From the IMG/VR virus record IMGVR_UViG_2541047946_000011: a stretch of 14,368 bases of DNA, one strand, 5' to 3'. The notes under the pieces were generated by a model, which had not been told where the DNA came from, made no database searches, and saw nothing but the letters and a program-made list of their open reading frames with translations. A program made the translations under genes and the position numbers. Each line of letters starts with the position of its first letter. Position 1 is the first letter of the stretch. Shown piece by piece: positions 1-13,809 of the stretch. Origin of the DNA: a virus (lineage: Duplodnaviria; Heunggongvirae; Uroviricota; Caudoviricetes).

Positions 1-1074
1 CCGGGCCATGATTATTATTTTTACGTTCGCAGTGTGAACACCGTTGGCAAATCGGCATTCGTGGAGGCCGTCGGTCGGGCGAGCGATGATGCGGAAGGTT
101 ACCTGGATTTTTTCAAAGGCCAGATAACCGAATCCCATCTCGGCAAGGAGCTGCTGGAAAAAGTCGAGCTGACGGAGGATAACGCCAGCAAACTGGAGGA
201 GTTTTCGAAAGAGTGGAAGGACGCCAACGATAAATGGAATGCCATGTGGGGCGTCAAAATTGAGCAGACCAAAGACGGCAAACATTATGTCGCGGGGCTT
301 GGCCTCAGCATGGAGGATACGGAGGAAGGCAAACTGAGCCAGTTCCTGGTTGCCGCTAACCGTATCGCGTTTATTGACCCGGCAAACGGGAATGAAACGC
401 CGATGTTTGTGGCGCAGGGCAACCAGATATTCATGAACGAAGTGTTCCTGAAGTATCTGACGGCTCCCACCATTACCAGTGGCGGTAATCCTCCGGCATT
501 TTCCCTGACACCGGACGGGCGGCTGACGGCGAGAAATGCTGATATCAGCGGTAACGTGAATGCGAACTCCGGGACGCTCAATAATGTCACGGTAAATGAA
601 AACTGTACGATTAAGGGCATGCTGGAGGCGAACCAGGTCAGAGGTGACTTCGTTAAAACTGTATCCAAATCATTCCCGAAAAAGGCTGGTACGTGGGGTA
701 ACACGGAAACACCAAACGGGACGGTTACAGTCACCATTTACGATGATCATAACTTTGACCGCCAAATCATTATTCCGCCCATTATTTTTAACGGTGTGGC
801 GTATGACGATCCGGGGAGCGGTAATAACCCGGGAGGTACGCGATACACGGGTTATGGTTTTGAAGTTCGCAAAAATGGCGTATTAATCGCATCCAGAGAA
901 ACTAAAGGAGCCATTCCCGGTAGTTACAGTGCGGTTATTGATATGCCGAGTGGTGGTGGTAACGTCACTCTGGAGTTTAAGATTTTCCAGAAAGGCAATC
1001 AGGGCGCAGGTAACATCACAGACTGTACGGTGATTGTGACCAAAAAAGCTGCTTCCGGTATCAGTATCCGTTGA
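1..1074 (+). CDS. J: Tail tip host-specificity protein J, C-terminal portion (5' end lies outside the window)
   Basis: Frame 1 is open from base 1 ([25 protein letters not shown]...) to TGA at 1072-1074; the ATG at 34 is internal. The translation matches lambda J C-terminal region as I remember it ([48 protein letters not shown]...), with the last ~130 aa (receptor-binding part) diverging from lambda. Confidence 0.85.
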
Positions 1075-1095
1075 AATATTTATAACCCCAATACG

Positions 1096-1119
1096 GGCGC
1101 CAGCAATGGCGCCTTTTTT
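1096..1119 (+). terminator. Hairpin plus T-run between J and stf (putative intrinsic terminator)
   Basis: GGCGCC (1096-1101), loop AGCAAT, GGCGCC (1108-1113), followed by TTTTTT (1114-1119). Sits where lom is found in lambda. Confidence 0.5.
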
Positions 1120-1134
1120 ATTTGTGGAGTGAGT

Positions 1135-3489
1135 ATGGCAGTACAGATTTCAGGTGTGCTGAAAGATGGTGCGGGAAAACCAATACAGAACTGCACTATT
1201 CAACTGAAGGCAAAGCGTAACAGCACCACGGTACTGGTGAACACGGTGGCCTCTGAAAATCCGGATGAAGCCGGGCGTTACAGCATGGATGTTGAGTATG
1301 GCCAGTACAACGTCACCCTGCTGGTTGAAGGTTTTCCGCCTTCACATGCCGGGACCATCACCGTGTATGAAGATTCTAAGCCGGGGACGCTGAATGATTT
1401 TCTCGGTGCCATGACGGAAGAGGATGTCATGCCGGAGGCATTACGCCGTTTTGAGGCTATGGTGGAAGAAGCAGCACGTAACGCTGAAGCTGCCTCTCAG
1501 AGCGCAGCGGCGGCAAAGAAATCCGAAACTGCAGCGGCATCATCGAAGAACGCGGCGAAAACCTCAGAAACGAATGCAGCTAACAGCGCACAGGCGGCAG
1601 CGGCCTCGCAGACTGCATCGGCAAATTCCGCGACAGCAGCTAAAAAATCAGAAACCAACGCGAAAAACAGCGAGACAGCAGCAAAGACGAGCGAAACCAA
1701 CGCAAAGTCCAGCCAGACGGCAGCGAAAACCAGCGAAACGAATGCTAAAGCCAGTGAAACTGCGGCAAAAAACAGCCAGGCTGCAGCAGCTGAAAGCGAG
1801 AGCGCAGCAGCCGGTTCTGCGACTTCAGCAGCTGGATCAGCAACTGCTGCGGCTAACAGCCAGAAAGCTGCGAAGACGAGTGAAACTAACGCAAAGTCCA
1901 GCCAGACGGCAGCGAAGACCAGCGAAACGAATGCCAAAGCCAGCGAAACTGCGGCAAAAAACAGTCAGGATGCAGCGGCCCAAAGCGAGAGTGCCGCAGC
2001 TGGTTCTGCAAGTGCGGCAGCTAATAGCCAAAAAGCTGCAAAAACCAGTGAAACTAACGCAAAGACGAGTGAAACAAAAGCAGCAGCCAGCGAGATAGAA
2101 GCAACGTCAGCCGCAACAAGAGCAGAGAATGCAGCCCGGATTGCAGAAGATGCCGCTGATCCTGCTTCAGTCCCTCCGCTTCCTGATATCTGGCTACCCT
2201 TGAATGATTCTCTGGAAGCGATAACAGGGTATGCCCCGGGCTATAAAACAATAACCATCGGCAGTGATGAAATAACAATGCCTGTTAATGGCATATGCCA
2301 ATTTAGCCGCGCTTCATCAGCAACGTATATTGATAAGTCCGGGCATATTACCGTGGCAGGGAATAACGTTCCTCGTTTTGAAAAATATGGTTTGCTGATA
2401 GAGAATCAGCGAACAAACATGTTCGTAAATAGTTTTAATCCTGATGCGTGGAATAAAAGCGGTGGTATATCTGTAACATCATCAACAGATGAATTTGAGT
2501 TTAAATATGGACGTTTCACAGTAGGAAGTGAGATAGCAGGAACGACAACAGGGAGAAATATATGCACAGTTGCTGGTAATAAAGGCATAGATGTGACTGG
2601 CGATGATCAGTACAGTAAAGGTCCGTATGTTACCGCGTCGTTCAGGGTAAGAAGTGATCTCAATGTTCGCGCACGTATCCGTTTTGAACGGTATAACTCG
2701 GAAGGATACACTTTCCTTTGTGACGCCTATTTGTCATTACAGACTCATGAACTACAAATTACGGGTGGTAATGCCCAGCTATTAACAGCAAACTTTGAAA
2801 TCGACCCTGGTAGTGGATGGATATATTTTCAGGCAACACTGAAATGTCTGCCAGAATGGGGAATGGTTGGTACGCAGCTGCAAATTGCAGCCGACAGAGC
2901 AGTGGGGGCTTTTGCAACAGGTGACTGGATAGAAGTAACCACCCCGCAATTCGAGTATGGTGCTTGTGCAACTTCCTTTATCATAACGACAACAGAGCCA
3001 GCGACTCGTGCATCAGATTTATGTAAATTTCCGCTGATGAAAAATATGTATACCATGCCTTTTACGTTCATGGTGGAAGTCCATAAAAACTGGTTTATTT
3101 CTCATAATGCTGCACCGCGTGTCATTGATTCAGAAAATCACCAGTCCGGAGGCCCATTTATTATGGGGTTTGGTTCTTCTGGAACTATCAGTCAGGATGG
3201 TTATTCGTATTGCGATATAGGCGGGGCTAACCGGCGTGTATATGAGTCATGCGGAGTAAGAGATCTCGTTATGGGATTCAGGGTTAAGGCTGACGGCATG
3301 ACATGCTCATTTGCAAATAAGAATATAAGCACTGAAACCAAAACAGTATGGAAATATATTCGTGAAGCAGCCGTGATTCGTATCGGGGGGCAAACGACGA
3401 CAGGATTACGACACCTTAATGGTCATATAAAAAACCTCCGTTTCTGGAACAGAGCATTGTCAGATACGCAGCTTAAGGAATACGTATAA
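1135..3489 (+). CDS. stf: Side tail fiber protein (lambda Stf-like N-terminus, Ala/Ser/Thr-rich repeat shaft, divergent C-terminal receptor-binding region with LamG-like C-terminal motif)
   Basis: ATG at 1135 preceded by GGAG (1126-1129); the track ORF starts at an upstream GTG at 1129. N-terminus MAVQISGVLKDGAGKPIQNCTIQLKAKRNSTTVLVNTV...GRYSMDVEYGQY...FPPSHAGTITVYEDS closely resembles lambda Stf. C-terminal end ...HLNGHIKNLRFWNRALSDTQLKEYV resembles the C-terminal motif of concanavalin/LamG-like jelly-roll domains. Stop TAA at 3487-3489. Confidence 0.85.
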   Translation: MAVQISGVLKDGAGKPIQNCTIQLKAKRNSTTVLVNTVASENPDEAGRYSMDVEYGQYNVTLLVEGFPPSHAGTITVYEDSKPGTLNDFLGAMTEEDVMPEALRRFEAMVEEAARNAEAASQSAAAAKKSETAAASSKNAAKTSETNAANSAQAAAASQTASANSATAAKKSETNAKNSETAAKTSETNAKSSQTAAKTSETNAKASETAAKNSQAAAAESESAAAGSATSAAGSATAAANSQKAAKTSETNAKSSQTAAKTSETNAKASETAAKNSQDAAAQSESAAAGSASAAANSQKAAKTSETNAKTSETKAAASEIEATSAATRAENAARIAEDAADPASVPPLPDIWLPLNDSLEAITGYAPGYKTITIGSDEITMPVNGICQFSRASSATYIDKSGHITVAGNNVPRFEKYGLLIENQRTNMFVNSFNPDAWNKSGGISVTSSTDEFEFKYGRFTVGSEIAGTTTGRNICTVAGNKGIDVTGDDQYSKGPYVTASFRVRSDLNVRARIRFERYNSEGYTFLCDAYLSLQTHELQITGGNAQLLTANFEIDPGSGWIYFQATLKCLPEWGMVGTQLQIAADRAVGAFATGDWIEVTTPQFEYGACATSFIITTTEPATRASDLCKFPLMKNMYTMPFTFMVEVHKNWFISHNAAPRVIDSENHQSGGPFIMGFGSSGTISQDGYSYCDIGGANRRVYESCGVRDLVMGFRVKADGMTCSFANKNISTETKTVWKYIREAAVIRIGGQTTTGLRHLNGHIKNLRFWNRALSDTQLKEYV
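1500..2100 (+). repeat. In-frame tandem repeats inside stf (about 189-bp / 63-aa period; AAKTSETNAKSSQTAAKTSETNAKASETAAKNSQ units)
   Basis: A near-identical DNA unit starts at 1681 and again at 1870 (gcaaagacgagcgaaaccaacgcaaagtccagccagacggcagcgaa vs gcgaagacgagtgaaactaacgcaaagtccagccagacggcagcgaa). Shorter degenerate AAKxSETNA repeats flank them. This low-complexity DNA also produces long spurious ORFs in other frames. Confidence 0.75.
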
Positions 3490-3758
3490 TGCGGGATATA
3501 ACATTACGATTCGATAACAGAGAACAGTTTAACGCAATTGTATATGACAGTGGCCTGTTCAGTCTTGAAGAAGAAAATGGGGTTCTTGTTGATGTTATTG
3601 GCTGCATTATTGATTACGAGGAGCCAGAAAACGAAAGATGTACAGGCATTGATCGCGGTGGTTTTTTCGTAAACATGAGGATTGTTGATGGCAGTAAAAA
3701 CATATCTTCTTTAATGCCTTTCATTACGACAGATCAGCATGTAAGGACATGGGCTTAA
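3489..3758 (+). CDS. Hypothetical 89-aa protein, translationally coupled to stf (possible tail fiber accessory or chaperone; not lambda Tfa-like)
   Basis: Its ATG (3489-3491) overlaps the stf stop in a TAATG arrangement. AT-rich like the stf 3' half. No recognisable motif. Occupies the position where lambda has tfa. Confidence 0.5.
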   Translation: MRDITLRFDNREQFNAIVYDSGLFSLEEENGVLVDVIGCIIDYEEPENERCTGIDRGGFFVNMRIVDGSKNISSLMPFITTDQHVRTWA

Positions 3759-4441
3759 TGGAGTAAGACAATGGTTACAAAAACAGTAATTCCTGATGAC
3801 ATCAAAACGCTAAAATCCGATGTTAGTAAACTAAAAACTGATCAAGGAAGCTATGCAACAAAATCATATGTAGACAATAAAACAACATGGAATAGTTATT
3901 GCAATGTAATCTATGATCAAAAGGCATTGCCGACCACTGGAACTATATTTAGCGGTAAGATTCACTTGTCAAATAAGACTGGTGAAACGGAAAACGCTTA
4001 TAGTGATATATATACCAGAAAAAATATTGATGGTACTAAAGATACAATGACGAGGATCGTCACACATAACGGGACAAAAGGTATCTTTTGGGACTTTAGT
4101 GATCTTTACGGAGGAACTTTAATTTTCCCTGGCACTGCTGGTTATTTGAAAATGGGTAAATGCCTCATGTCCTATGGGGATCGTGTAGATAATGCCCTGA
4201 TTAAATTTGATTATACAGACACACTACAGATCAAATATGCTAATCATGGTTCGACCATGACACTAAACACACAGGGAACCGCTCACGCTGGCGTTACTGC
4301 TAAATTGTGGGGCAATTCTAGCCGTCCGGTTGTTTATGAAGTTGGTGTAGATGGTGGGGCTTTTATATTCTTCGGTCAAAAACAAACAGATGACACATAT
4401 GCATTTGCTGTTAATGGTGCATGTCAAGCGACCGCATTTAA

Positions 4442-4446
4442 CCAGA
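4442..4446. repeat. IS2 target-site duplication, left copy (CCAGA)
   Basis: CCAGA lies immediately left of the IS2 left end and is repeated at 5778-5782 immediately right of the IS2 right end. Confidence 0.8.
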
Positions 4447-4537
4447 TAGACTGGCCCCCTGAATCACCAGACAACCAATATCACTTATTTAAGTGATAGT
4501 CTTAATACTAGTTTTTAGGCTAGTCATTGGAGAGCAG

Positions 4538-4903
4538 ATGATTGATGTCTTAGGACCGGAGAAACGCAGACGGCGTACCACACAGGAAAAGATCGCAATT
4601 GTTCAGCAGAGCTTTGAACCAGGGATGACGGTCTCCCTCGTTGCCCGGCAACATGGTGTAGCAGCCAGCCAGTTATTTCTCTGGCGTAAGCAATACCAGG
4701 AAGGAAGTCTTACTGCTGTCGCCGCCGGAGAACAGGTTGTTCCTGCCTCTGAACTTGCTGCCGCCATGAAGCAGATTAAAGAACTCCAGCGCCTGCTCGG
4801 CAAGAAAACGATGGAAAATGAACTCCTCAAAGAAGCCGTTGAATATGGACGGGCAAAAAAGTGGATAGCGCACGCGCCCTTATTGCCCGGGGATGGGGAG
4901 TAA
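4538..4903 (+). CDS. insC: IS2 transposase OrfA (InsC)
   Basis: [56 protein letters not shown]... is recognisably IS2 InsC. ATG at 4538 with GGAG at 4529-4532. The track ORF from 4493 includes IS-end sequence upstream of the real start. Confidence 0.9.
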
Positions 4904-5766
4904 GCTTAGTCAGCCGTTGTCTCCGGGTGTCGCGTGCGCAGTTGCACGTCATTCTCAGACGAACCGATGACTGGATGGATGGCCGCCGCAGTCGTCACAC
5001 TGATGATACGGATGTGCTTCTCCGTATACACCATGTTATCGGAGAGCTGCCCACGTATGGTTATCGTCGGGTATGGGCGCTGCTTCGCAGACAGGCAGAA
5101 CTTGATGGTATGCCTGCGATCAATGCCAAACGTGTTTACCGGATCATGCGCCAGAATGCGCTGTTGCTTGAGCGAAAACCTGCTGTACCGCCATCGAAAC
5201 GGGCACATACAGGCAGAGTGGCTGTGAAAGAAAGTAATCAGCGATGGTGCTCTGACGGGTTCGAGTTCCGCTGTGATAACGGAGAAAAACTGCGAGTCAC
5301 GTTCGCGCTGGACTGCTGTGACCGTGAGGCACTGCACTGGGCGGTCACTACGGGCGGCTTCAACAGTGAAACAGTACAGGACGTCATGCTGGGAGCGGTG
5401 GAACGCCGCTTCGGCAACGAGCTTCCGGCGTCTCCAGTAGAGTGGCTGACGGATAATGGTTCATGCTACCGGGCTAATGAAACACGGCAGTTTGCCCGGA
5501 TGTTGGGGCTTGAACCGAAGAGCACGGCGGTGCGGAGTCCGGAGAGTAACGGCATAGCAGAGAGCTTCGTGAAAACGATAAAGCGTGACTACATCAGTGT
5601 CATGCCCAAACCAGACGGGTTAACGGCAGCAAAGAACCTTGCAGAGGCGTTCGAGCATTATAACGAATGGCATCCGCATAGTGCACTGGGTTATCGCTCG
5701 CCACGGGAATATCTACGGCAGCAAGCCAGTAATGGGTTAAGTGATAACAGGTGTCTGGAAATATAG
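4861..5766 (+). CDS. insD: IS2 transposase OrfB (InsD; DDE integrase domain, normally made as an InsCD fusion by -1 frameshift)
   Basis: [77 protein letters not shown]... is recognisably IS2 InsD. It overlaps insC in the -1 frame; slippery AAAAAAG lies at about 4854-4860. Confidence 0.9.
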
Positions 5767-5777
5767 GGGCAAATCCA

Positions 5778-5782
5778 CCAGA
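5778..5782. repeat. IS2 target-site duplication, right copy (CCAGA)
   Basis: Identical to 4442-4446. Confidence 0.8.
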
Positions 5783-6119
5783 CCTCTGACCGAGACCTGA
5801 AAGATAATATTCAGGTGATTGATAATGCAACCAATCGCATCCGTAAGATGAATGGTTATACATACACGCTTAAAGAAAACGGGATGCCTTACGCTGGTGT
5901 TATCGCACAGGAAGCCTTAGAAGCAATTCCAGAGTCCGTAGGCTCTACGATAAAATATAGGGACGGTGGTAGCGGATCTGAAGGCGAAGAAGGTGAACGG
6001 TATTACACTGTAGATTATTCTGGTGTTACTGGCTTGCTTGTTCAGGTAGCCAGAGAGTCAGACGACAGGATAACAGCACTGGAAGAAGAAAACGCAGAAT
6101 TAAGACAAAGATTATCTGC

Positions 6120-6127
6120 AATTGAGG
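6120..6127. repeat. IS66-family target-site duplication, left copy (AATTGAGG)
   Basis: The 8-bp AATTGAGG immediately precedes the GTAAGCGT terminus at 6128 and recurs at 8660-8667 after the opposite terminus. An 8-bp duplication is typical of the IS66 family. Confidence 0.75.
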
Positions 6128-6212
6128 GTAAGCGTAAACTGACCGCCGTATGTAGCCATCAGACGAGAATTGGTAACTTAGACGCCCATCTGATATAGAC
6201 GGACATCTAAGT

Positions 6213-6638
6213 ATGGAATTACAGGACTGGCGAAAAGAACCTCGTAAAAACTATTCGAATGAATTCAAACTTCGTATGGTGGAACTGGCATCACAACCTG
6301 GAGCTTGTGTTGCACAGATTGCACGTGAAAATGGCGTCAATGATAATGTTATTTTCAAATGGCTCAGGCTCTGGCAGAACGAAGGGCGTGTTTCGCGGCG
6401 TCTTCCGGTAACGACCTCTTCTGACACTGGCGTTGAATTATTACCTGTAGAAATAACGCCGGATGAGCAGAAAGAACCTGTGGCGGCCATTGCGCCGTCT
6501 TTATCCACTTCCACTCAGACCAGAGTCAGTGCCAGTTCCTGCAAGGTGGAATTCCGTCACGGTAACATGACGCTGGAAAATCCATCGCCAGAGCTGCTCA
6601 CAGTGTTGATCCGTGAACTGACCGGGAGGGGAAGATGA
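6213..6638 (+). CDS. tnpA: IS66-family accessory protein TnpA (orf1)
   Basis: MELQDWRKEPRKNYSNEFKLRMVELASQPGACVAQIARENGVNDNVIFKWLRLW... is typical IS66 orf1; its stop overlaps the tnpB start. Confidence 0.85.
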   Translation: MELQDWRKEPRKNYSNEFKLRMVELASQPGACVAQIARENGVNDNVIFKWLRLWQNEGRVSRRLPVTTSSDTGVELLPVEITPDEQKEPVAAIAPSLSTSTQTRVSASSCKVEFRHGNMTLENPSPELLTVLIRELTGRGR

Positions 6639-6985
6639 TCTCACTCCCATCAGGTACCCGTATCTGGCTCGTTGCCGGCGTTACCGATATGCGTAAATCC
6701 TTCAACGGACTGGGAGAACAGGTACAACATGTGCTGAATGATAATCCCTTCTCCGGTCACCTGTTTATCTTCCGTGGCCGACGGGGTGACACCGTCAAAA
6801 TTCTTTGGGCTGATGCTGATGGTCTGTGCCTGTTCACCAAACGCCTGGAGGAAGGCCAGTTTATCTGGCCTGCGGTACGTGACGGCAAGGTATCCATTAC
6901 CCGCTCGCAACTGGCAATGCTCCTCGATAAGCTGGACTGGCGTCAGCCAAAAACATCCAGCCGTAACTCACTGACAATGTTGTAA
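6635..6985 (+). CDS. tnpB: IS66-family accessory protein TnpB (orf2)
   Basis: MISLPSGTRIWLVAGVTDMRKSFNGLGEQVQHVLNDNPFSGHLFIFRGRRGDTVKILWADADGLCLFTKRLE... is the highly conserved IS66 orf2. Confidence 0.9.
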   Translation: MISLPSGTRIWLVAGVTDMRKSFNGLGEQVQHVLNDNPFSGHLFIFRGRRGDTVKILWADADGLCLFTKRLEEGQFIWPAVRDGKVSITRSQLAMLLDKLDWRQPKTSSRNSLTML

Positions 6986-7015
6986 AAAACTCCTGACCGC
7001 ATTATAAAAACGGTC

Positions 7016-8629
7016 ATGAGTCAGAAATACCTCATTCGCATCGCAGAGCTGGAAAGGTTGCTCTCTGAGCAGGCTGAAGCCCTCCGTCAGAAAGACCAGC
7101 AACTGAGTCTGGTTGAAGAGACGGAAGCCTTCCTGCGCTCTGCACTGACACGTGCCGAAGAAAAGATCGAAGAAGATGAACGGGAAATAGAACATCTGCG
7201 GGCTCAGATAGAAAAACTGCGCCGGATGCTGTTCGGTACCCGTTCTGAAAAACTGCGTCGTGAAGTTGAACTGGCTGAGGCTCTGCTGAAACAACGTGAA
7301 CAGGACAGCGATCGTTACAGTGGGCGGGAAGACGATCCTCAGGTTCCCCGCCAGTTGCGACAGTCGCGCCATCGTCGTCCGTTACCGGCACACCTTCCCC
7401 GTGAAATACACCGCCTGGAGCCAGAAGAAAGCTGTTGCCCGGAGTGTGGCGGTGAGCTGGATTATCTGGGGGAAGTCAGCGCTGAACAGCTGGAACTGGT
7501 GAGCAGTGCCCTGAAAGTGATCCGCACAGAACGGGTAAAAAAAGCCTGTACAAAATGTGACTGTATTGTTGAAGCACCGGCGCCGTCCCGCCCGATAGAG
7601 CGTGGTATCGCGGGCCCCGGATTACTTGCCCGCGTGTTAACGGGAAAATACTGCGAACATCTGCCACTGTATCGTCAGAGTGAAATCTTTGCCCGCCAGG
7701 GTGTCGAACTGAGCCGGGCCTTACTCTCCAACTGGGTTGACGCGTGCTGCCAGTTAATGACACCGGTGAATGATGCCCTGTACCGTTATGTAATGAACAC
7801 CCGCAAGGTTCACACTGATGACACACCGGTAAAGGTACTGGCACCGGGTCAGAAAAAGGCGAAAACAGGGCGTATCTGGACGTATGTCCGGGATGATCGC
7901 AATGTGGGTTCGTCATCTCCTCCAGCGGTCTGGTTCGCGTACTCGCCGAACCGGCAGGGGAAACACCCGGAGCAACACCTCCGCCCCTTCCGGGGTATCC
8001 TGCAGGCGGATGCGTTCACAGGTTACGACAGGTTGTTCAGTGCAGAACGTGAAGGTGGTGCACTGACAGAAGTTGCGTGCTGGGCCCATGCCCGGCGAAA
8101 AATCCACGATGTATACATCAGCAGCAAAAGTGCGACGGCAGAAGAAGCCCTGAAGCGAATCAGTGAACTGTACGCCATCGAGGATGAAATACGGGGATTA
8201 CCGGAGTCAGAGCGTCTTGCCGTCAGGCAGCAGCGAAGCAAAGTGTTACTGACGTCGCTGCATGAATGGATGGTGGAGAAGAATGGTACGCTGTCGAAAA
8301 AATCCAGACTGGGCGAAGCGTTCAGCTATGTACTGAATCAGTGGGATGCCCTCTGTTATTACAGTGATGACGGTCTGGCGGAGGCGGATAATAATGCTGC
8401 GGAAAGAGCGCTTCGTGCAGTCTGTCTCGGAAAGAAAAACTTTATGTTCTTTGGCAGCGATCACGGCGGCGAGCGTGGAGCACTGTTGTACGGGCTGATC
8501 GGCACCTGCCGTCTGAACGGTATCGATCCGGAAGCGTATCTGCGCCATATCCTGAGCGTACTGCCGGAATGGCCTTCCAACCGAGTTGACGAACTCCTGC
8601 CATGGAACGTAGTACTCACCAATAAATAA
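7016..8629 (+). CDS. tnpC: IS66-family transposase TnpC (orf3)
   Basis: 537 aa with an N-terminal coiled-coil/leucine-zipper region, a CxxC...CxxC zinc-finger-like motif (CPECGGE...CTKCDC) and a DDE-type core, as expected for IS66 transposases. Confidence 0.9.
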   Translation: MSQKYLIRIAELERLLSEQAEALRQKDQQLSLVEETEAFLRSALTRAEEKIEEDEREIEHLRAQIEKLRRMLFGTRSEKLRREVELAEALLKQREQDSDRYSGREDDPQVPRQLRQSRHRRPLPAHLPREIHRLEPEESCCPECGGELDYLGEVSAEQLELVSSALKVIRTERVKKACTKCDCIVEAPAPSRPIERGIAGPGLLARVLTGKYCEHLPLYRQSEIFARQGVELSRALLSNWVDACCQLMTPVNDALYRYVMNTRKVHTDDTPVKVLAPGQKKAKTGRIWTYVRDDRNVGSSSPPAVWFAYSPNRQGKHPEQHLRPFRGILQADAFTGYDRLFSAEREGGALTEVACWAHARRKIHDVYISSKSATAEEALKRISELYAIEDEIRGLPESERLAVRQQRSKVLLTSLHEWMVEKNGTLSKKSRLGEAFSYVLNQWDALCYYSDDGLAEADNNAAERALRAVCLGKKNFMFFGSDHGGERGALLYGLIGTCRLNGIDPEAYLRHILSVLPEWPSNRVDELLPWNVVLTNK

Positions 8630-8659
8630 GCGTCAATACGGTGCTCCGTTGACGCTTAC

Positions 8660-8667
8660 AATTGAGG
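8660..8667. repeat. IS66-family target-site duplication, right copy (AATTGAGG)
   Basis: Identical to 6120-6127. Confidence 0.75.
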
Positions 8668-8693
8668 CGGCGCTTGCGTCTAAATAATATTAA

Positions 8694-8716
8694 GGGGCCG
8701 AGCGCCCCGTTTTATT
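8694..8716 (+). terminator. Putative intrinsic terminator after the reconstructed tail-fiber gene
   Basis: GGGGC (8694-8698), loop CGAGC, GCCCC (8704-8708), then GTTTTATT. Lies directly after the TAA at 8685-8687. Confidence 0.5.
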
Positions 8717-8723
8717 GGGTAGG

Positions 8724-9017
8724 ATGAAAATGGATATAACACCTTTCCTTCATGCGCTTTGTGCTGTGGCTGCGCAGCTACTGATTGGTCTTTTTACCGG
8801 AAACTGGGCTTACGGGGCGATAGCCGGTTGTACGTTCTTCATTGCGCGTGAACACACCCAGGCAGAATATCGCTGGATTGAAATGTTCGGGCATGGCAAG
8901 CGTATGAATATGCCGTGGTGGGGCGGTTTTGATCCTCGTGCATGGGATGTGGCTAGCCTGATGGATTTTGCTGTGCCGGTGGTGGCGTGTCTGCTGGTCT
9001 GGCTGTTGATCCGTTAA
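8724..9017 (+). CDS. Small hypothetical membrane protein (two predicted hydrophobic helices), b-region cargo gene
   Basis: Track ORF 8715-9017; likely start ATG at 8724 or 8730, with AGGA at 8721-8724. Hydrophobic stretches FLHALCAVAAQLLIGLFTG and FAVPVVACLLVWLLI. Function not recognised. Confidence 0.5.
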   Translation: MKMDITPFLHALCAVAAQLLIGLFTGNWAYGAIAGCTFFIAREHTQAEYRWIEMFGHGKRMNMPWWGGFDPRAWDVASLMDFAVPVVACLLVWLLIR

Positions 9018-9057
9018 ACATAAAAAGCTGCAGTATCTTGCCATGACAAGTTACTGC
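9018..9057 (-). terminator. Hairpin with T-run on the minus strand (putative terminator closing the minus-strand cargo genes; convergent with the 8724-9017 gene)
   Basis: GCAGTATCTTG (9030-9040), loop CCATGA, CAAGTTACTGC (9047-9057): an 11-bp stem with one mismatch. On the minus strand the hairpin is followed by AGCTTTTTATGTTT. Confidence 0.45.
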
Positions 9058-9199
9058 GGATGGCTGGTGAACTTCCGATAGTGCGGGTGTTGAATGATTT
9101 CCAGTTGCTACCGATTTTACATATTTTTTGCATGAGAGGATTTGCACCTCCTCCCACCGATCCTCCATGACTTTACGCCACTGTCTCTATGGCTGCTAT

Positions 9200-9214
9200 G
9201 TGCCAGAAGCGGAC
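9200..9214. repeat. 15-bp direct repeat GTGCCAGAAGCGGAC, copy 1 (flanks the 271-aa gene)
   Basis: Exact 15-mer also at 10253-10267; the flanking bases are partially similar (TTCATTAGAT vs ATTACTAAGAT). Confidence 0.7.
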
Positions 9215-9262
9215 TTCATTAGATTCTTTGTTTTTTGTGTTAATATACTTACAATCCCATCA

Positions 9263-10078
9263 TCAACTAACAACCCAATCATCAGATAATATATCACTGA
9301 TATTGAAAATATAGGTATGGTTATTTTTACCATCTGAAATGACGATTTTTTTTAAGTTGAATCTTTCTGATATGATATGCGTTGCAAATTGTGGGATTAT
9401 TAAAAACAAAGCCTCTACCTTACTGATTAATTCAATGTTGACTTTAGGTCTGAAGTTTGCATCATGAACCACTTTGTGCCTAATGTAAAATGCTTCCTCT
9501 ATGAGGGCTCTCCAGTCTGGAAATATATTTTCTATCGATAAACCTTGGGAAATTTGGCCACTCAGACCGCAAGGAGATATATTAGTTGTACATATGTAGT
9601 TTAAAAAACTCTCACCCCACATGCCATTATATGCTTCTTCAAGGTCGTTTAAGTTTTGAAAGTTAAAGCTTTTACTCAATAACTCTGATAGATTTATCTC
9701 AGTGTTTATATTGATAGATGTTTCTGTTCTCATTTTAGATAGTAGTGTTGTAATTCTAGATTCATCAACTGAATGCACGAAAACAAAAACGTCTCTAAAA
9801 TATGTTTCCCAGCAACTGATTAGAAATACAAAATATTGTCGATATGCTGTTTTATAAATATCTATTTTCTTATCTTTCGTTGAAATAAGTGAATGCATAA
9901 GTCGACAATTTTCTGCAAAATTTAGTAGGAAAGACATTGAGAAGTCTTCTATAGCTCCTCTTGATTCGCGAAGAGATAGCAATTCATCAATAATTTTTTT
10001 ATTGATTTTCCTAATCTTTTTCAATTGCATGCCTCGTTTTTGCTTAAGTAAAGTTGATTTTGGAGTTTCGTCAATCAT
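9263..10078 (-). CDS. Hypothetical 271-aa protein, strongly AT-rich; HEPN-like Rx4H motif (possible Abi-like RNase)
   Basis: Long minus-strand ORF, visibly lower GC than its neighbours, Lys/Ile/Asn-rich. Contains ...EEAFYIRHKVVHDANF... (R-x4-H) in the C-terminal half. No other family recognised by eye. Confidence 0.6.
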   Translation of the reverse strand: MIDETPKSTLLKQKRGMQLKKIRKINKKIIDELLSLRESRGAIEDFSMSFLLNFAENCRLMHSLISTKDKKIDIYKTAYRQYFVFLISCWETYFRDVFVFVHSVDESRITTLLSKMRTETSININTEINLSELLSKSFNFQNLNDLEEAYNGMWGESFLNYICTTNISPCGLSGQISQGLSIENIFPDWRALIEEAFYIRHKVVHDANFRPKVNIELISKVEALFLIIPQFATHIISERFNLKKIVISDGKNNHTYIFNISDILSDDWVVS

Positions 10079-10252
10079 GTTATCTTATTAGATTTAAAGA
10101 TAAAGTCACTTTTTGCATAAGCTTTGCGACAAAGATAGCTTTAATGAAAGGCCTTATAGAGCTACTTGGCCATAAAAATTTTTACGATGAATTCGAATTC
10201 AGCGTCCGCTCCTCGCTTAAAGCTGTCCTTGGGCCTAACCTACGATAGCTTC

Positions 10253-10267
10253 GTGCCAGAAGCGGAC
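10253..10267. repeat. 15-bp direct repeat GTGCCAGAAGCGGAC, copy 2
   Basis: Exact copy of 9200-9214, lying inside the 476-bp gap between the 374-aa and 271-aa genes. Confidence 0.7.
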
Positions 10268-10554
10268 ATTACTAAGATAGTAACGTATCAAACGGTGGGA
10301 CAAGTCATGCCAAGTGCGGAAGTGGCTAACAACCATCTGTGTTGTTTAACGGGGAACAGGTCATTCCATTGACCCGATCATTTATGTTGCGCTGACGCTT
10401 AGGTGATAAAAAGCCGCCTATGCCCGTCTATCTTTGGGGATCCGCAATGAAGTTGATTGTGAGGTTATTAGGCTAGGTCTTCTCATTTATAAGTTGTTGA
10501 AGTAGCAACGAATTATCGAGCGATTTATCCCGATTAAATGTCTCACTATTACTC

Positions 10555-11679
10555 TTAATCGGTAAATTCATAGTTTGGCCGCATTGAGAAACGCCACAGA
10601 GGCAGGCCTCCCCCTTTGTAATCATCAGGGATGGTTACCGTGAAAAGTCTGACATTCTGCCGGGTGTCAACTGACCTGATCTGGCTGTCGTGTACAGTCT
10701 GCTCGTTAAAGGCCGACGTGACCAGCGAACTCAGCGTACCTATAAAGTCGAAACCCTGTCTTTTGTAATTTTCGTCGTCTTCCGGGGAAAATGTGTATCG
10801 GATGCTCTCAAGCTGACCATCAGTGAATATTGCCTCCGATCCGGGGCAGAGCCACTCTCCGTAGCGCATCAGATGAAACGCCGTGTTCATTTCAAATTTA
10901 TCCGTTACTTGTCTGTCATTGCAGTAAATTTTAATCTCGCCAATTGTAAAATGGGCGATGCCTTCGGGACTAACTGAAACTTCTTTGGTCCGGTCGGGGA
11001 TAAGCTCAAAAACCAGATCGGGTTCTGTTGCTATCGATAGGTCGCCCAGCAGGTACATCTCACTTTTTGCGAGCGCCGAGGCCGGCGTCAAGGTATGTTC
11101 ACGCTCTAGCTCCTTCATTGAGGAGCGTGCAACCAGCGCCCACCGGCGCAGCATCCTGATGTAGATGGCATAATAAACTGGAATACCATGGAGCTCACCG
11201 TACTTTTCAACCTTATCACTGTACGATTTCTTCAGGCGATAATCGTCAGCCACGTCATCCGCGTTAAAGTTTTTTACTTCCACAAAGATCTGACGGCGAT
11301 CCTTCAGTATAATGCGATAGTCAGGTGCCACCAGATCGGGATCGGCTGACATCAAGTCTCCGGCGTCTTCCTGTTTAAGAAACTGGCAGTGGTTCAGTGC
11401 GGCGCAAACGTGTTTAAATAGGTTTTCTATTCTTTTCCCGTTCAGCAGAATTGGATTCTGATGGGAAGCGATTAATGACGTGGTGACCTTTTGTATAAAG
11501 TCATCCTGGTGCTCGGGGTTTTTAATATCGTAATTATAGATCTGGCCCAACGAGGAAAAAAGCTCAAAGGCTTCAAATCGTTCGGGATTCCTCTTGATTC
11601 TTTCCATTAATGACTCCGCAGCTAATAAATACAACGAAATGAGATCACTTGTTTCTCTGAAGTTACCTGAAAACTGCAT
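10555..11679 (-). CDS. Hypothetical 374-aa protein with a PD-(D/E)xK nuclease-like motif (candidate defense effector)
   Basis: Minus-strand ORF starting 69 bp downstream of the FRG gene stop. Contains ...LVAPDYRIILKDRRQIFVEVKNFNADD..., i.e. a D in a hydrophobic strand followed 15 residues later by E-V-K, the spacing and context of restriction-endonuclease-fold active sites. No strong Shine-Dalgarno before the first ATG, so the start is uncertain. Confidence 0.7.
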   Translation of the reverse strand: MQFSGNFRETSDLISLYLLAAESLMERIKRNPERFEAFELFSSLGQIYNYDIKNPEHQDDFIQKVTTSLIASHQNPILLNGKRIENLFKHVCAALNHCQFLKQEDAGDLMSADPDLVAPDYRIILKDRRQIFVEVKNFNADDVADDYRLKKSYSDKVEKYGELHGIPVYYAIYIRMLRRWALVARSSMKELEREHTLTPASALAKSEMYLLGDLSIATEPDLVFELIPDRTKEVSVSPEGIAHFTIGEIKIYCNDRQVTDKFEMNTAFHLMRYGEWLCPGSEAIFTDGQLESIRYTFSPEDDENYKRQGFDFIGTLSSLVTSAFNEQTVHDSQIRSVDTRQNVRLFTVTIPDDYKGGGLPLWRFSMRPNYEFTD

Positions 11680-11748: not shown

Positions 11749-13119
11749 TCAGATTCGTCCATCGTATAGTTTTGCAATTTCCGTAGCAGCCTTCTCAATG
11801 CCGGGGTACACCGTGCTTTCGTTAATGCCAAGGCGGCTCAGTTGCTGCATCAGATGCTCTTTGTTTCTAATAACAAGCTTTTTGATGTTCAGCGTACTGA
11901 GTCCCGTTTCCGGTAGGTCTACGTTTTCACCAAAGAGCAGGAAAGCGCCTGATTGGGACGAAATACGTGCGTTACTGAGCCTACCTTTGACCACAACAAT
12001 TTTACTTAGGTGGACCGGATCGATGATGCTTTTGAAATAGGACTTTTCATCGCGGATCAGGTGTAGTAGTTGTCCGCACTCTTCAGATTCGTTAAACGCC
12101 GGAATGGTGAGATTAGTTTTCAGGCTGCTTTTGAAACGAGAGGGAAGACGGGAAAGATTGGCTATGCAACTTACGGTATCCGAGTCGAAAAACTTAATTT
12201 CACTTTTGGGCGTCGTCAGAATAATGACGTTCCCGTCAATTTCATGATTATTTTCATCGTGCTTGATTTTAGAGCAGGCAAAATATAGTGCGATCAAGGG
12301 GTTTGTTGATACATCAAGCAGGCGTGTGGGTAGGCCATAGTGTTGCATGCGCACGAGTTTATCTAGCATATACCGATCGTCTTTGAACTCGGCGGGCTGC
12401 ACGGTCAGCAGCTCTGTTATCATGTCCGATTCGTGATGGCGGTAGCGATAGTTACCCTGAGTATCCTTGCGGAACAGTGAGGGTTCCAGTTGGTAGCTGA
12501 TGTCCGAGTGACCGCGGTAAAATACCTCTTCATCGTTTCCCTGTGTATGATCGAGTATCACCTGCAAGTACTGATTGATATTCGCAATGATCTCTAGTTC
12601 TTCATTATTCTCCGGTGCTTCCGCACTCGCTGTTGCGGGCTCAACATTAGAATAGCCTTCAAGGCCTAAAACACGCAGAATCTCATTTACGGAAATCTCT
12701 TTGACCGCCCAGAACGTTCTGTTTAGTCCGAAACTGCCCAGCTCCAGCTCACTTACGTACTCTTTATCGCTGGTTAAGGGCTTGTAGCCGATATCACTGG
12801 TAATCTCATAATCAAACGCTAAAACTTTTTCTCTGTTATACACGGACGTACTTATCTTGCTGATTTTTCCTAAGCGGATGTGGCTGAAATAACCTATTTT
12901 TTCATTATCTTCATCGAATTCAATTTCCGGCTCGGACATAAATACAACGGGCAGTTCCTGAAGAAAATGATAGGTTTTTTCAGTCAGGGGAAGCAATCTG
13001 CTTCTAAGAGACTCTGGCGTGGATTCGAAGAGTCGCGACACAGGGAAAGAGTCATTGCCACTGGGTTCAGAAAAAAAAGTGTAGTATTTGGGGGTTCCGA
13101 CAACGATAAGATTCAGCAT
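11749..13119 (-). CDS. Hypothetical 456-aa protein with an FRG domain (candidate defense sensor/partner), first gene of the minus-strand pair
   Basis: Contains FYRGHSDISYQLEPSLFRK, ...MQHYGLPTRLLDVSTNPLIALYFAC and ...NARISSQSGAFLLFG, which match the FRG-domain hallmark motifs as I remember them. The N-terminal ~190 aa are unrecognised. GAGGA lies 8 nt upstream of the ATG at 13119. Confidence 0.75.
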   Translation of the reverse strand: MLNLIVVGTPKYYTFFSEPSGNDSFPVSRLFESTPESLRSRLLPLTEKTYHFLQELPVVFMSEPEIEFDEDNEKIGYFSHIRLGKISKISTSVYNREKVLAFDYEITSDIGYKPLTSDKEYVSELELGSFGLNRTFWAVKEISVNEILRVLGLEGYSNVEPATASAEAPENNEELEIIANINQYLQVILDHTQGNDEEVFYRGHSDISYQLEPSLFRKDTQGNYRYRHHESDMITELLTVQPAEFKDDRYMLDKLVRMQHYGLPTRLLDVSTNPLIALYFACSKIKHDENNHEIDGNVIILTTPKSEIKFFDSDTVSCIANLSRLPSRFKSSLKTNLTIPAFNESEECGQLLHLIRDEKSYFKSIIDPVHLSKIVVVKGRLSNARISSQSGAFLLFGENVDLPETGLSTLNIKKLVIRNKEHLMQQLSRLGINESTVYPGIEKAATEIAKLYDGRI

Positions 13120-13640: not shown

Positions 13641-13809
13641 TGCTCTGTTACAGGTCACTAATATCATCTAAGTAGTTGATTCATAGTGACTGCATATGTT
13701 GTGTTTTGGAGTATTATGCAGTCTATCATTTAGACTAAAACTCTCATAACACACTGATATTAATGATTTTTACTGTTTATCGTTCAGCTTTTTTATACTA
13801 ACTTGAGCG
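13641..13809 (+). other. attR (P arm, core, B'): lambda-type attachment site; core GCTTTTTTATACTAA at 13787-13801
   Basis: The P arm (CTGTTACAGGTCACTAATATCATCTAAGTAGTTGATTCATAGTGACTGCATATGTTGTGTT) closely matches the lambda attP P arm, including arm-type Int-site-like GGTCACTAAT and AGTGACTGCAT. The 15-bp core is identical to lambda. The right flank CTTGAGCGAAACG is the bacterial attB B' side. Confidence 0.85.

Follow-up and report, generated by a model that had tools for sequence, protein, structure and literature searches.

The stretch of DNA analyzed here, IMG/VR virus record IMGVR_UViG_2541047946_000011 (14,368 nt; "the window" denotes this whole stretch), contains the att-lambda right arm of a lambda-like prophage, a site located between ybhC and ybhB-bioA. 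Within it lies a gene for a 346-aa tail fiber that has been broken into three pieces by two insertion sequences (IS), namely an IS2 of the IS3 family and an ISEc23-type element of the IS66 family (Table 1). Two independent simple transpositions made this gene a pseudogene. A first-pass annotation made from the letters alone had placed both elements, with their target duplications, inside one gene; every coordinate that it gave holds, and the elements were identified as IS2 and ISEc23-type IS66.

The interrupted fiber gene and its intact alleles

Excision of both elements in silico, each with one copy of its duplication, joined positions 3771-4446, 5783-6127 and 8668-8687 into an uninterrupted open reading frame (ORF) of 346 aa that ended in LSAIEAALASK, with its stop codon at 8685-8687. 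The continuous frame expected from the first-pass annotation was thereby obtained. As it stands, the 5' fragment is read into IS2 as far as a stop at 4496, and 16 residues of the resulting 241-aa product are IS2-encoded. In the annotation of the Prokaryotic Genome Annotation Pipeline (PGAP), this fragment is a pseudogene with the label "missing C-terminus". RefSeq already shows two pseudogene fragments at the locus, both called "tail fiber domain-containing protein", on either side of an IS3-family transposase and ISEc23. What the reconstruction adds is that both belong to a single gene of 346 aa and that exact restoration of the locus is possible.

Intact counterparts were identified by using a 945-nt query that represented both emptied sites and included the 3' 665 nt of the restored ORF. 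This query was found at 100% identity in the chromosomes of Escherichia coli FDAARGOS_1249 and CEA106S (NZ_CP069459.1, NZ_CP166722.1), as well as in phages PhiR11_1 and PhiR11_1_star (PV340547, PV340548), so that both reconstructed junctions exist in sister prophages and phages. The intact fiber coding sequence (CDS) in PhiR11_1 (PV340547.1) is 1041 nt long (41542-42582), and the intact allele is annotated as WP_001703036.1. Strings of 40 nt across the empty sites were exact in the FDAARGOS_1249, CEA106S and PhiR11_1-type loci, where the CCAGA that is duplicated around IS2 is single-copy. No point mutation separates the fiber fragments of the window from the intact alleles; on this sequence evidence the two insertions would be recent.

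The four 40-nt strings that cross the IS junctions were found in six independent assemblies from different countries. These were LC-1302-2020 (L001/L004; E. coli, Italy), which differs from the window at 1 base in 14,368, MMC-J-0105 (L002/L007; Israel), which is collinear with the window apart from one additional IS3-family element in stf at approximately 3095-3098, and the assemblies L009, L010, L011 and L012. The only exception was L011, which had 3 of the 4 junctions and matched the window at 98.2% identity in the stretch concerned.

Three trivial accounts of the structure were considered and rejected. Because the junctions recur in independent assemblies and the empty sites are exact, both a chance duplication and an assembly or annotation artefact are excluded; for an artefact produced by repeat collapse, the perfect duplications leave a probability that is practically negligible. 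A composite transposon, or any other single event, was rejected as well, given that the elements belong to different families, that each has its own duplication, and that the intervening 350 bp belong to the gene itself and keep its native order. The duplications are thus not coincidental, which had been a stated concern of the first-pass annotation.

The IS2 copy is 1331 bp long, starts with TAGACTGG (longer form TAGACTGGCCCCC) and terminates in ...CAAATCCA (longer form ...GGGGCAAATCCA). These termini are the same as those of K-12 IS2A, to which the copy is 97.6% identical over all 1331 bp (32 mismatches, no gaps) and which is also flanked by a 5-bp duplication, ATTAC. An A6G frameshift motif is located at 4855, and PGAP annotates a programmed frameshift. 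The products of 121 and 301 aa matched the NCBIfam models for IS2 TnpA (276 bits, cut-off 229) and TnpB (713 bits, cut-off 597). An IS2 copy 100% identical to this one is present elsewhere in the LC-1302-2020 chromosome.

The ISEc23-type element is bounded by terminal inverted repeats (GTAAGCGT...) that begin with GTAAGCG and match at 20 of the first 25 positions. Its three ORFs are intact (TnpA, 141 aa; TnpB, 116 aa; the DDE transposase encoded by tnpC, 537 aa), with NCBIfam matches to IS66 TnpA (83 bits, cut-off 74), IS66_TnpB (121 bits, cut-off 50) and transpos_IS66 (452 bits, cut-off 180). Over its 2532 bp the element is 100% identical to many copies on E. coli chromosomes and plasmids, and PGAP names the transposase of these identical copies "IS66-like element ISEc23 family". 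The duplications of 5 and 8 bp are the sizes expected for IS2 and for the IS66 family.

Fiber domains and the effect of each insertion

The restored protein covered phrog_4563 ("tail fiber protein") over positions 1-346 of 346 (E value 1e-200). Residues 227-278 matched Pfam Peptidase_S74 (PF13884, chaperone of endosialidase), scoring 50.4 bits where the gathering score is 22 (E value 2.7e-13), and the profile search proposed with the reconstruction therefore returned the anticipated family. The junction restored by removing IS2 recreates the motif TSDRDLKDNI (T226, S227, K232), in which serine and lysine are spaced five residues apart; the suggestion that this motif marks the start of a chaperone domain agrees with the Pfam match, which begins at residue 227. 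Catalytic dyads have been described for endoNF (S911/K916) and MyRF (S587/K592) (PMC8326128), and Ser227/Lys232 is the predicted auto-cleavage dyad equivalent to endoNF S911/K916. The fiber consists of an N-terminal part (residues 1 to approximately 226) and a C-terminal S74 intramolecular chaperone/auto-cleavage domain (residues 227-346).

Full-length comparison of the restored protein with PDB sequences gave no match at an E value of 0.01 or below, and a search of NCBIfam gave no match either. When the C-terminal 133 aa were used as the query, a single PDB sequence relative was recovered, 6f45_A, the distal subunit of a long tail fiber; in this weak alignment (E value 0.004) its SSDRRIKKDI pairs with the fiber motif.

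The two insertions differ in what they remove, as excision confirmed. IS2 is located one codon before Ser227, immediately upstream of the predicted auto-cleavage serine, so that residues 1-225 are cut off from the chaperone domain, which is required for trimer folding in characterized relatives. By analogy with the chaperone domains of endoNF, T5 and MyRF, on which the role in trimer folding is based (dyads of endoNF and MyRF: PMC8326128), the truncated fiber without its folding domain would be unable to trimerize and would be non-functional. ISEc23 is located six codons before the stop codon and replaces only the last six codons (AALASK). By itself it may have been nearly silent: the change is confined to the very end of a domain that cleavage normally removes.

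State of the prophage, its sisters and the neighboring genes

The prophages of LC-1302-2020 and MMC-J-0105 were mapped on PhiR11_1 as the reference. Each carries a deletion, covering reference positions 944-11261 in LC-1302-2020 and 1966-11258 in MMC-J-0105, with an IS3-family element at the gap. In both strains cII, cro, cI, N, sieB, ral, gam, bet and exo are removed and O is truncated; the deletion in LC-1302-2020 additionally takes xis and the N-terminus of int. Otherwise the head and tail genes are annotated as intact. The comparison suggests stepwise IS-mediated rearrangement after a common insertion in O.

What is left is a prophage remnant that lacks a repressor, N and a complete O, and in which pR should be gone together with the cro-to-cI segment. 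Judged by gene content, the remnant is predicted to be neither inducible nor able to replicate and, in LC-1302-2020, also unable to excise. In these nearest complete genomes the prophage is a defective (cryptic) one. The first-pass annotation had suggested that the prophage may be defective for making fully decorated virions; with the immunity and early region deleted, the defect in these relatives is much more fundamental than the lack of a fiber. Since it is dead in the nearest genomes, no late gene is under purifying selection there. The window itself ends at J on the immunity side, and we infer the deletion in its own source from these near-identical relatives.

The IS3-family elements at the two deletions are annotated with an AL1L pseudoknot (L004, 41100-42313; L007, 42579-43792) and lie in opposite orientation in LC-1302-2020 and MMC-J-0105. 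The O-side deletion junctions of the two strains are at most 3 bp apart, and the int-side ends differ (reference 943 versus 1965).

The LC-1302-2020 chromosome contained 15 IS2-like and 9 ISEc23-like matches, which included 100% identical copies of both fiber insertions. Among the sister prophages the backbone was 99.9-100% identical outside IS elements, and the IS sets differed by strain. FDAARGOS_1249 has an IS2 near ea22, an IS3-family element with a deletion from nin to the lysis genes, and an IS5 in stf (L005, window approximately 1284-1292). CEA106S has IS3-family elements in cII and in Q, an IS110 between L and K, and an IS2 in stf (L006, approximately 3153-3158). The three stf insertions in MMC-J-0105 (L002), CEA106S and FDAARGOS_1249 are further independent events in the gene adjoining the fiber gene. 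PhiR11_1, a complete phage genome record with E. coli K-12 MG1655 as the listed host, retains int, xis, cI, cro, N, O and P. Its full-length IS2, in the non-essential right arm (L003, 47044-48374), has the FRG gene on one side and the att end on the other, and the phage is therefore a potential vehicle for IS2. The name of the record, together with ECOR13 as the host given for sister records, suggests that PhiR11_1 is a member of the ECOR-derived panel of temperate phages.

Decay has continued within the inserted elements. In L011 and L012 the ISEc23 transposase gene is itself split by an IS3-type element at window position approximately 7108-7110 (approximately 9340-10650 in those assemblies), and in L010 (6943-8374) the IS2 is interrupted or contains a gap. 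In a different prophage, located next to appY-ompT in DFL.5 (L008, 4593-6969), a 93%-identical fiber allele has been hit by an IS3-family element of IS2 size at another site (after approximately 234 nt) and in the opposite orientation, an independent event. In the draft assembly L013 (2636-3151), window position 921, within J, is joined directly to the first 514 bp of IS2, next to minE-ymgD; this junction is either an IS2-mediated rearrangement in which most of the prophage was lost or a scaffolding artefact.

The exact 241-aa truncated product was found in 55 blocks of a public assembly collection, including ENA metagenome assemblies with record names that point to human samples. Given its presence in so many genomes and assemblies, the double insertion is not a one-off but is fixed in, and marks, an E. 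coli lineage that has been sampled widely. All contexts of adequate length (6 of 6) carried both IS elements. No intermediate with a single IS was found in RefSeq complete genomes or in long contigs with the exact 241-aa product; short-read contigs end inside IS2 and are uninformative. The four IS junctions offer a convenient marker for this lineage.

The genes around the interrupted fiber gene are listed in Table 1. The Stf-like gene upstream is intact and as long as the PhiR11_1 gene annotated as Stf, and its product also contains the NCBIfam GTA_spike_fiber domain (residues 421-626). Together with the broken fiber gene it forms one accessory fiber module of the lambda side-tail-fiber type, lying 3' of J, carrying the Stf N-terminal attachment domain, and arranged in the gene order of PhiR11_1. 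The Stf-like gene is a single uninterrupted ORF, yet PGAP splits the LC-1302-2020 copy (L001, 9736-12090) into a pseudogene "missing C-terminus" and a separate "phage head spike fiber domain" CDS. Internal alanine-rich repeats occur in this gene (1666-1833 versus 1855-2022, 87.5% identical).

Searches of Pfam and NCBIfam with the 89-aa ORF, and of NCBIfam with the 100-aa ORF, gave no match. Three genes of the right arm on the minus strand may be anti-phage prophage cargo: one encodes an FRG-domain protein that matched a PADLOC candidate defence family, and the PADLOC search gave no match for the HEPN-like protein or the 374-aa protein. The prophage is flanked by ybhB and bioA, and the PhiR11_1 record ends at window position 13785.

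Table 1. Features of the window, in order of position (window coordinates)
Feature	Position	Strand	Remarks
J, C-terminus	34-1074		Phage_Tail_Tip, Ig_GpJ_C
Stf-like side-tail-fiber gene, intact, 784 aa	1135-3489	+	Pfam phage_tail_N, E value 6e-68, residues 1-131
89-aa ORF between stf and fiber gene	3489-3758	+	in all sister prophages as WP_001544317.1
Fiber gene, 5' fragment, native codons 1-225	3771-4446	+	100% identical to intact alleles
IS2 target duplication, left copy	4442-4446		CCAGA
IS2 (IS3 family), 1331 bp	4447-5777	+	tnpA/insC 4538-4903, insD 4861-5766
IS2 target duplication, right copy	5778-5782		CCAGA
Fiber gene, middle fragment, approximately codons 226-340	5783-6127	+	Peptidase_S74 domain; 100% identical to intact alleles
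ISEc23 8-bp target duplication, left copy	6120-6127		AATTGAGG
ISEc23-type IS66-family element, 2532 bp	6128-8659	+	tnpA 6213-6638, tnpB 6635-6985, tnpC 7016-8629
ISEc23 8-bp target duplication, right copy	8660-8667		AATTGAGG
Fiber gene, 3' remnant, last six codons (AALASK) and stop	8668-8687	+	from excision and intact allele
Terminator-like GC hairpin followed by a T run	8694-8708	+	directly past fiber stop codon
95/100-aa ORF	3' of hairpin, before minus-strand cargo genes
Cargo gene, 271 aa	9263-10078	-	sub-threshold RiboL-PSP-HEPN match; DNA 31.5% GC
Cargo gene, 374 aa	10555-11679	-	no match
Cargo gene, 456 aa, FRG-domain protein	11749-13119	-	PADLOC candidate defence family PDC-S15, E value 7e-99
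Lambda att core, exact; attR, right prophage end next to ybhB	13787-13801	+	GCTTTTTTATACTAA

Origin of the two insertions and comparison with known systems

Overall, neutral IS-driven decay of a non-functional prophage probably produced both fiber hits. An IS-rich host with many active-looking copies of IS2 and ISEc23 would have supplied the insertions, with IS2 transposing in to leave its 5-bp duplication and ISEc23 doing so separately to leave one of 8 bp. In both complete genomes of the lineage the immunity and early region has been lost beside an IS3-family element, which would have left the late genes unselected. Because lambda-type side fibers are accessory, such hits would also have been tolerable before the death of the prophage. 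The side fibers of lambda (Stf) are dispensable for plaque formation (PMC2762979, PMC3945230), which is known for Stf and not for the 346-aa fiber. The first-pass annotation had proposed that the fiber was dispensable or counter-selected in the lysogen; dispensability is plausible from the lambda side fibers and from the three stf hits in the sister prophages, and counter-selection found no support.

Coincidence of this kind is only mildly unusual. If the 15 IS2 and 9 ISEc23 copies were distributed uniformly in 5.0 Mb, approximately 0.03 IS2/ISEc23 pairs would be expected in one given 1-kb gene, but this gene was chosen after the fact from a huge space of genomes and genes.

Several points weigh against purely neutral decay. 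Within a prophage of approximately 37 kb, the chance that the second of two IS falls in the same gene as the first is approximately 0.03. Across five sister prophages, 5 of 12 independent IS events fell in the stf-fiber module, which makes up 7.7% of the length (binomial p = 0.0014; p = 0.036 when the two ascertained hits are subtracted), and this hints at something beyond uniform neutral decay. The deletion of the immunity region was read from relatives, as the window does not reach that region, and with regard to the order of events the fiber hits may predate the death of the prophage.

The alternative that best survives these points is tolerance or positive selection specific to the module, by which IS hits in accessory fibers persist or are favored while the phage is still viable. 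In addition to the enrichment just given, IS-split loci were found for the fiber module (a 2636-nt stretch) in 4 of the 60 best-matching genomes, representing three lineages, and in none of 60 for an equal-length tape-measure control. An independent IS2-like insertion interrupts the allele of DFL.5, both CEA106S and FDAARGOS_1249 have an IS in stf, and in lambda, loss of stf is compatible with viability and is even favored by selection in structured habitats (PMC2762979; PMC3945230). Against this, all four chromosomal sisters with stf or fiber hits have lethal lesions too (in O, cII or Q, or the nin-to-lysis deletion), so that tolerance in a live phage is not demonstrated, and PhiR11_1, the only demonstrably viable relative, keeps both genes intact. 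Approximately 55 other genomes carry uninterrupted alleles of 93-94% identity. The enrichment becomes marginal once the ascertained pair is left out, and base composition confounds it, as 11 of the 12 IS events lie outside the head and tail block of 55-60% GC. Tolerance or selection of this kind is accordingly possible, though clearly the less probable account.

A broader version of the same idea is that the module is a preferential IS sink, that loss of side fibers is tolerated or favored in active phage, and that IS insertion represents a recurrent and in principle reversible switch-off of receptor-binding proteins. We consider this version doubtful. The IS enrichment is suggestive, is confounded by clonality, guanine-cytosine (GC) content and ascertainment, and is not claimed here; for the side-fiber module as a preferred IS sink it gives a weak and unproven hint.

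Target-site preference, in which the AT-rich fiber region draws IS2 and ISEc23 irrespective of selection, appears unlikely. The 5' part of the fiber gene has 38% GC versus 50% for the whole phage and 55-60% for the head and tail genes, and IS2 has struck this gene family at two sites in unrelated prophages. However, no obvious motif is common to the four IS2 target duplications (CCAGA, CAACC, CCATT and that of the DFL.5 site), IS5 and IS110 inserted in DNA of 54% GC, and equally AT-rich cargo, such as the HEPN gene, is unhit in every copy.

Late genes of lambda are silent in the lysogen. Counter-selection in the lysogen, by which fiber expression would be costly or would expose the host, with knock-outs selected as a result, is very improbable: the coincidence of two hits in one gene favors it and nothing direct does, whereas the fiber gene, as part of the J-stf operon of a lambda-type prophage, belongs to the late genes, pR and N-dependent Q expression should be gone in the nearest genomes with the loss of cI, cro and N, ISEc23 is a poor knock-out that alters only the last 6 residues of a cleaved-off domain, and the allele family is intact in most genomes.

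Nothing at the locus departs from the known behavior of IS2, the IS66 family or S74-type fibers, and the case is ordinary and known in kind. Beyond annotation its significance is slight. The near-identical sister prophages provide a small example of fast dismantling by IS elements rather than by point mutations, and if the weak excess of insertions in the side-fiber module were general, it would inform on which phage functions go first.

That prophages are domesticated and decay through IS insertions in their genes, and through deletion of prophage regions associated with IS, is textbook knowledge. The prophages of E. coli IAI39 were classed as defective owing to IS in life-cycle genes, which served as the working criterion (PMC3945230). 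Like the locus described here, the IAI39 and K-12 cryptic lambdoid prophages have IS with normal duplications in late or regulatory genes, stepwise decay in an IS-rich host, and IS-associated loss of the immunity region. From such IS-decayed E. coli prophages there is no difference in kind; particular to the present case are two different IS within 1.7 kb of native sequence, in one gene of 1041 bp.

Lambda PaPa carries a frameshift in stf (Hendrix and Duda 1992, as cited in PMC2762979 and PMC3945230). In both cases an accessory side-fiber function was lost by simple mutation while the central J tip stayed intact. In lambda PaPa, however, the change is a 1-bp frameshift in stf, whereas here it is an IS insertion in a second, S74-chaperone-bearing fiber gene located 3' of an intact Stf-like gene, and the carrier prophage is not one known to be viable.

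At the protein level, endoNF, the T5 L-shaped fiber pb1 and the long tail fiber tip of S16 (6f45) share with the restored fiber a C-terminal S74 domain above the Pfam threshold and a C-terminal helical tail. The Ser-x4-Lys spacing of S227/K232 is that of endoNF S911/K916. The fiber described here differs from these proteins in being short (346 aa), in having an N-terminal part with no relative among PDB sequences, and in that its auto-cleavage is predicted.

The closest comparison is with PhiR11_1. This phage differs from the window in having no IS in the fiber gene, in carrying its IS2 in the right arm, and in retaining the integration, immunity and replication genes listed above; outside IS elements the two share the same prophage backbone.

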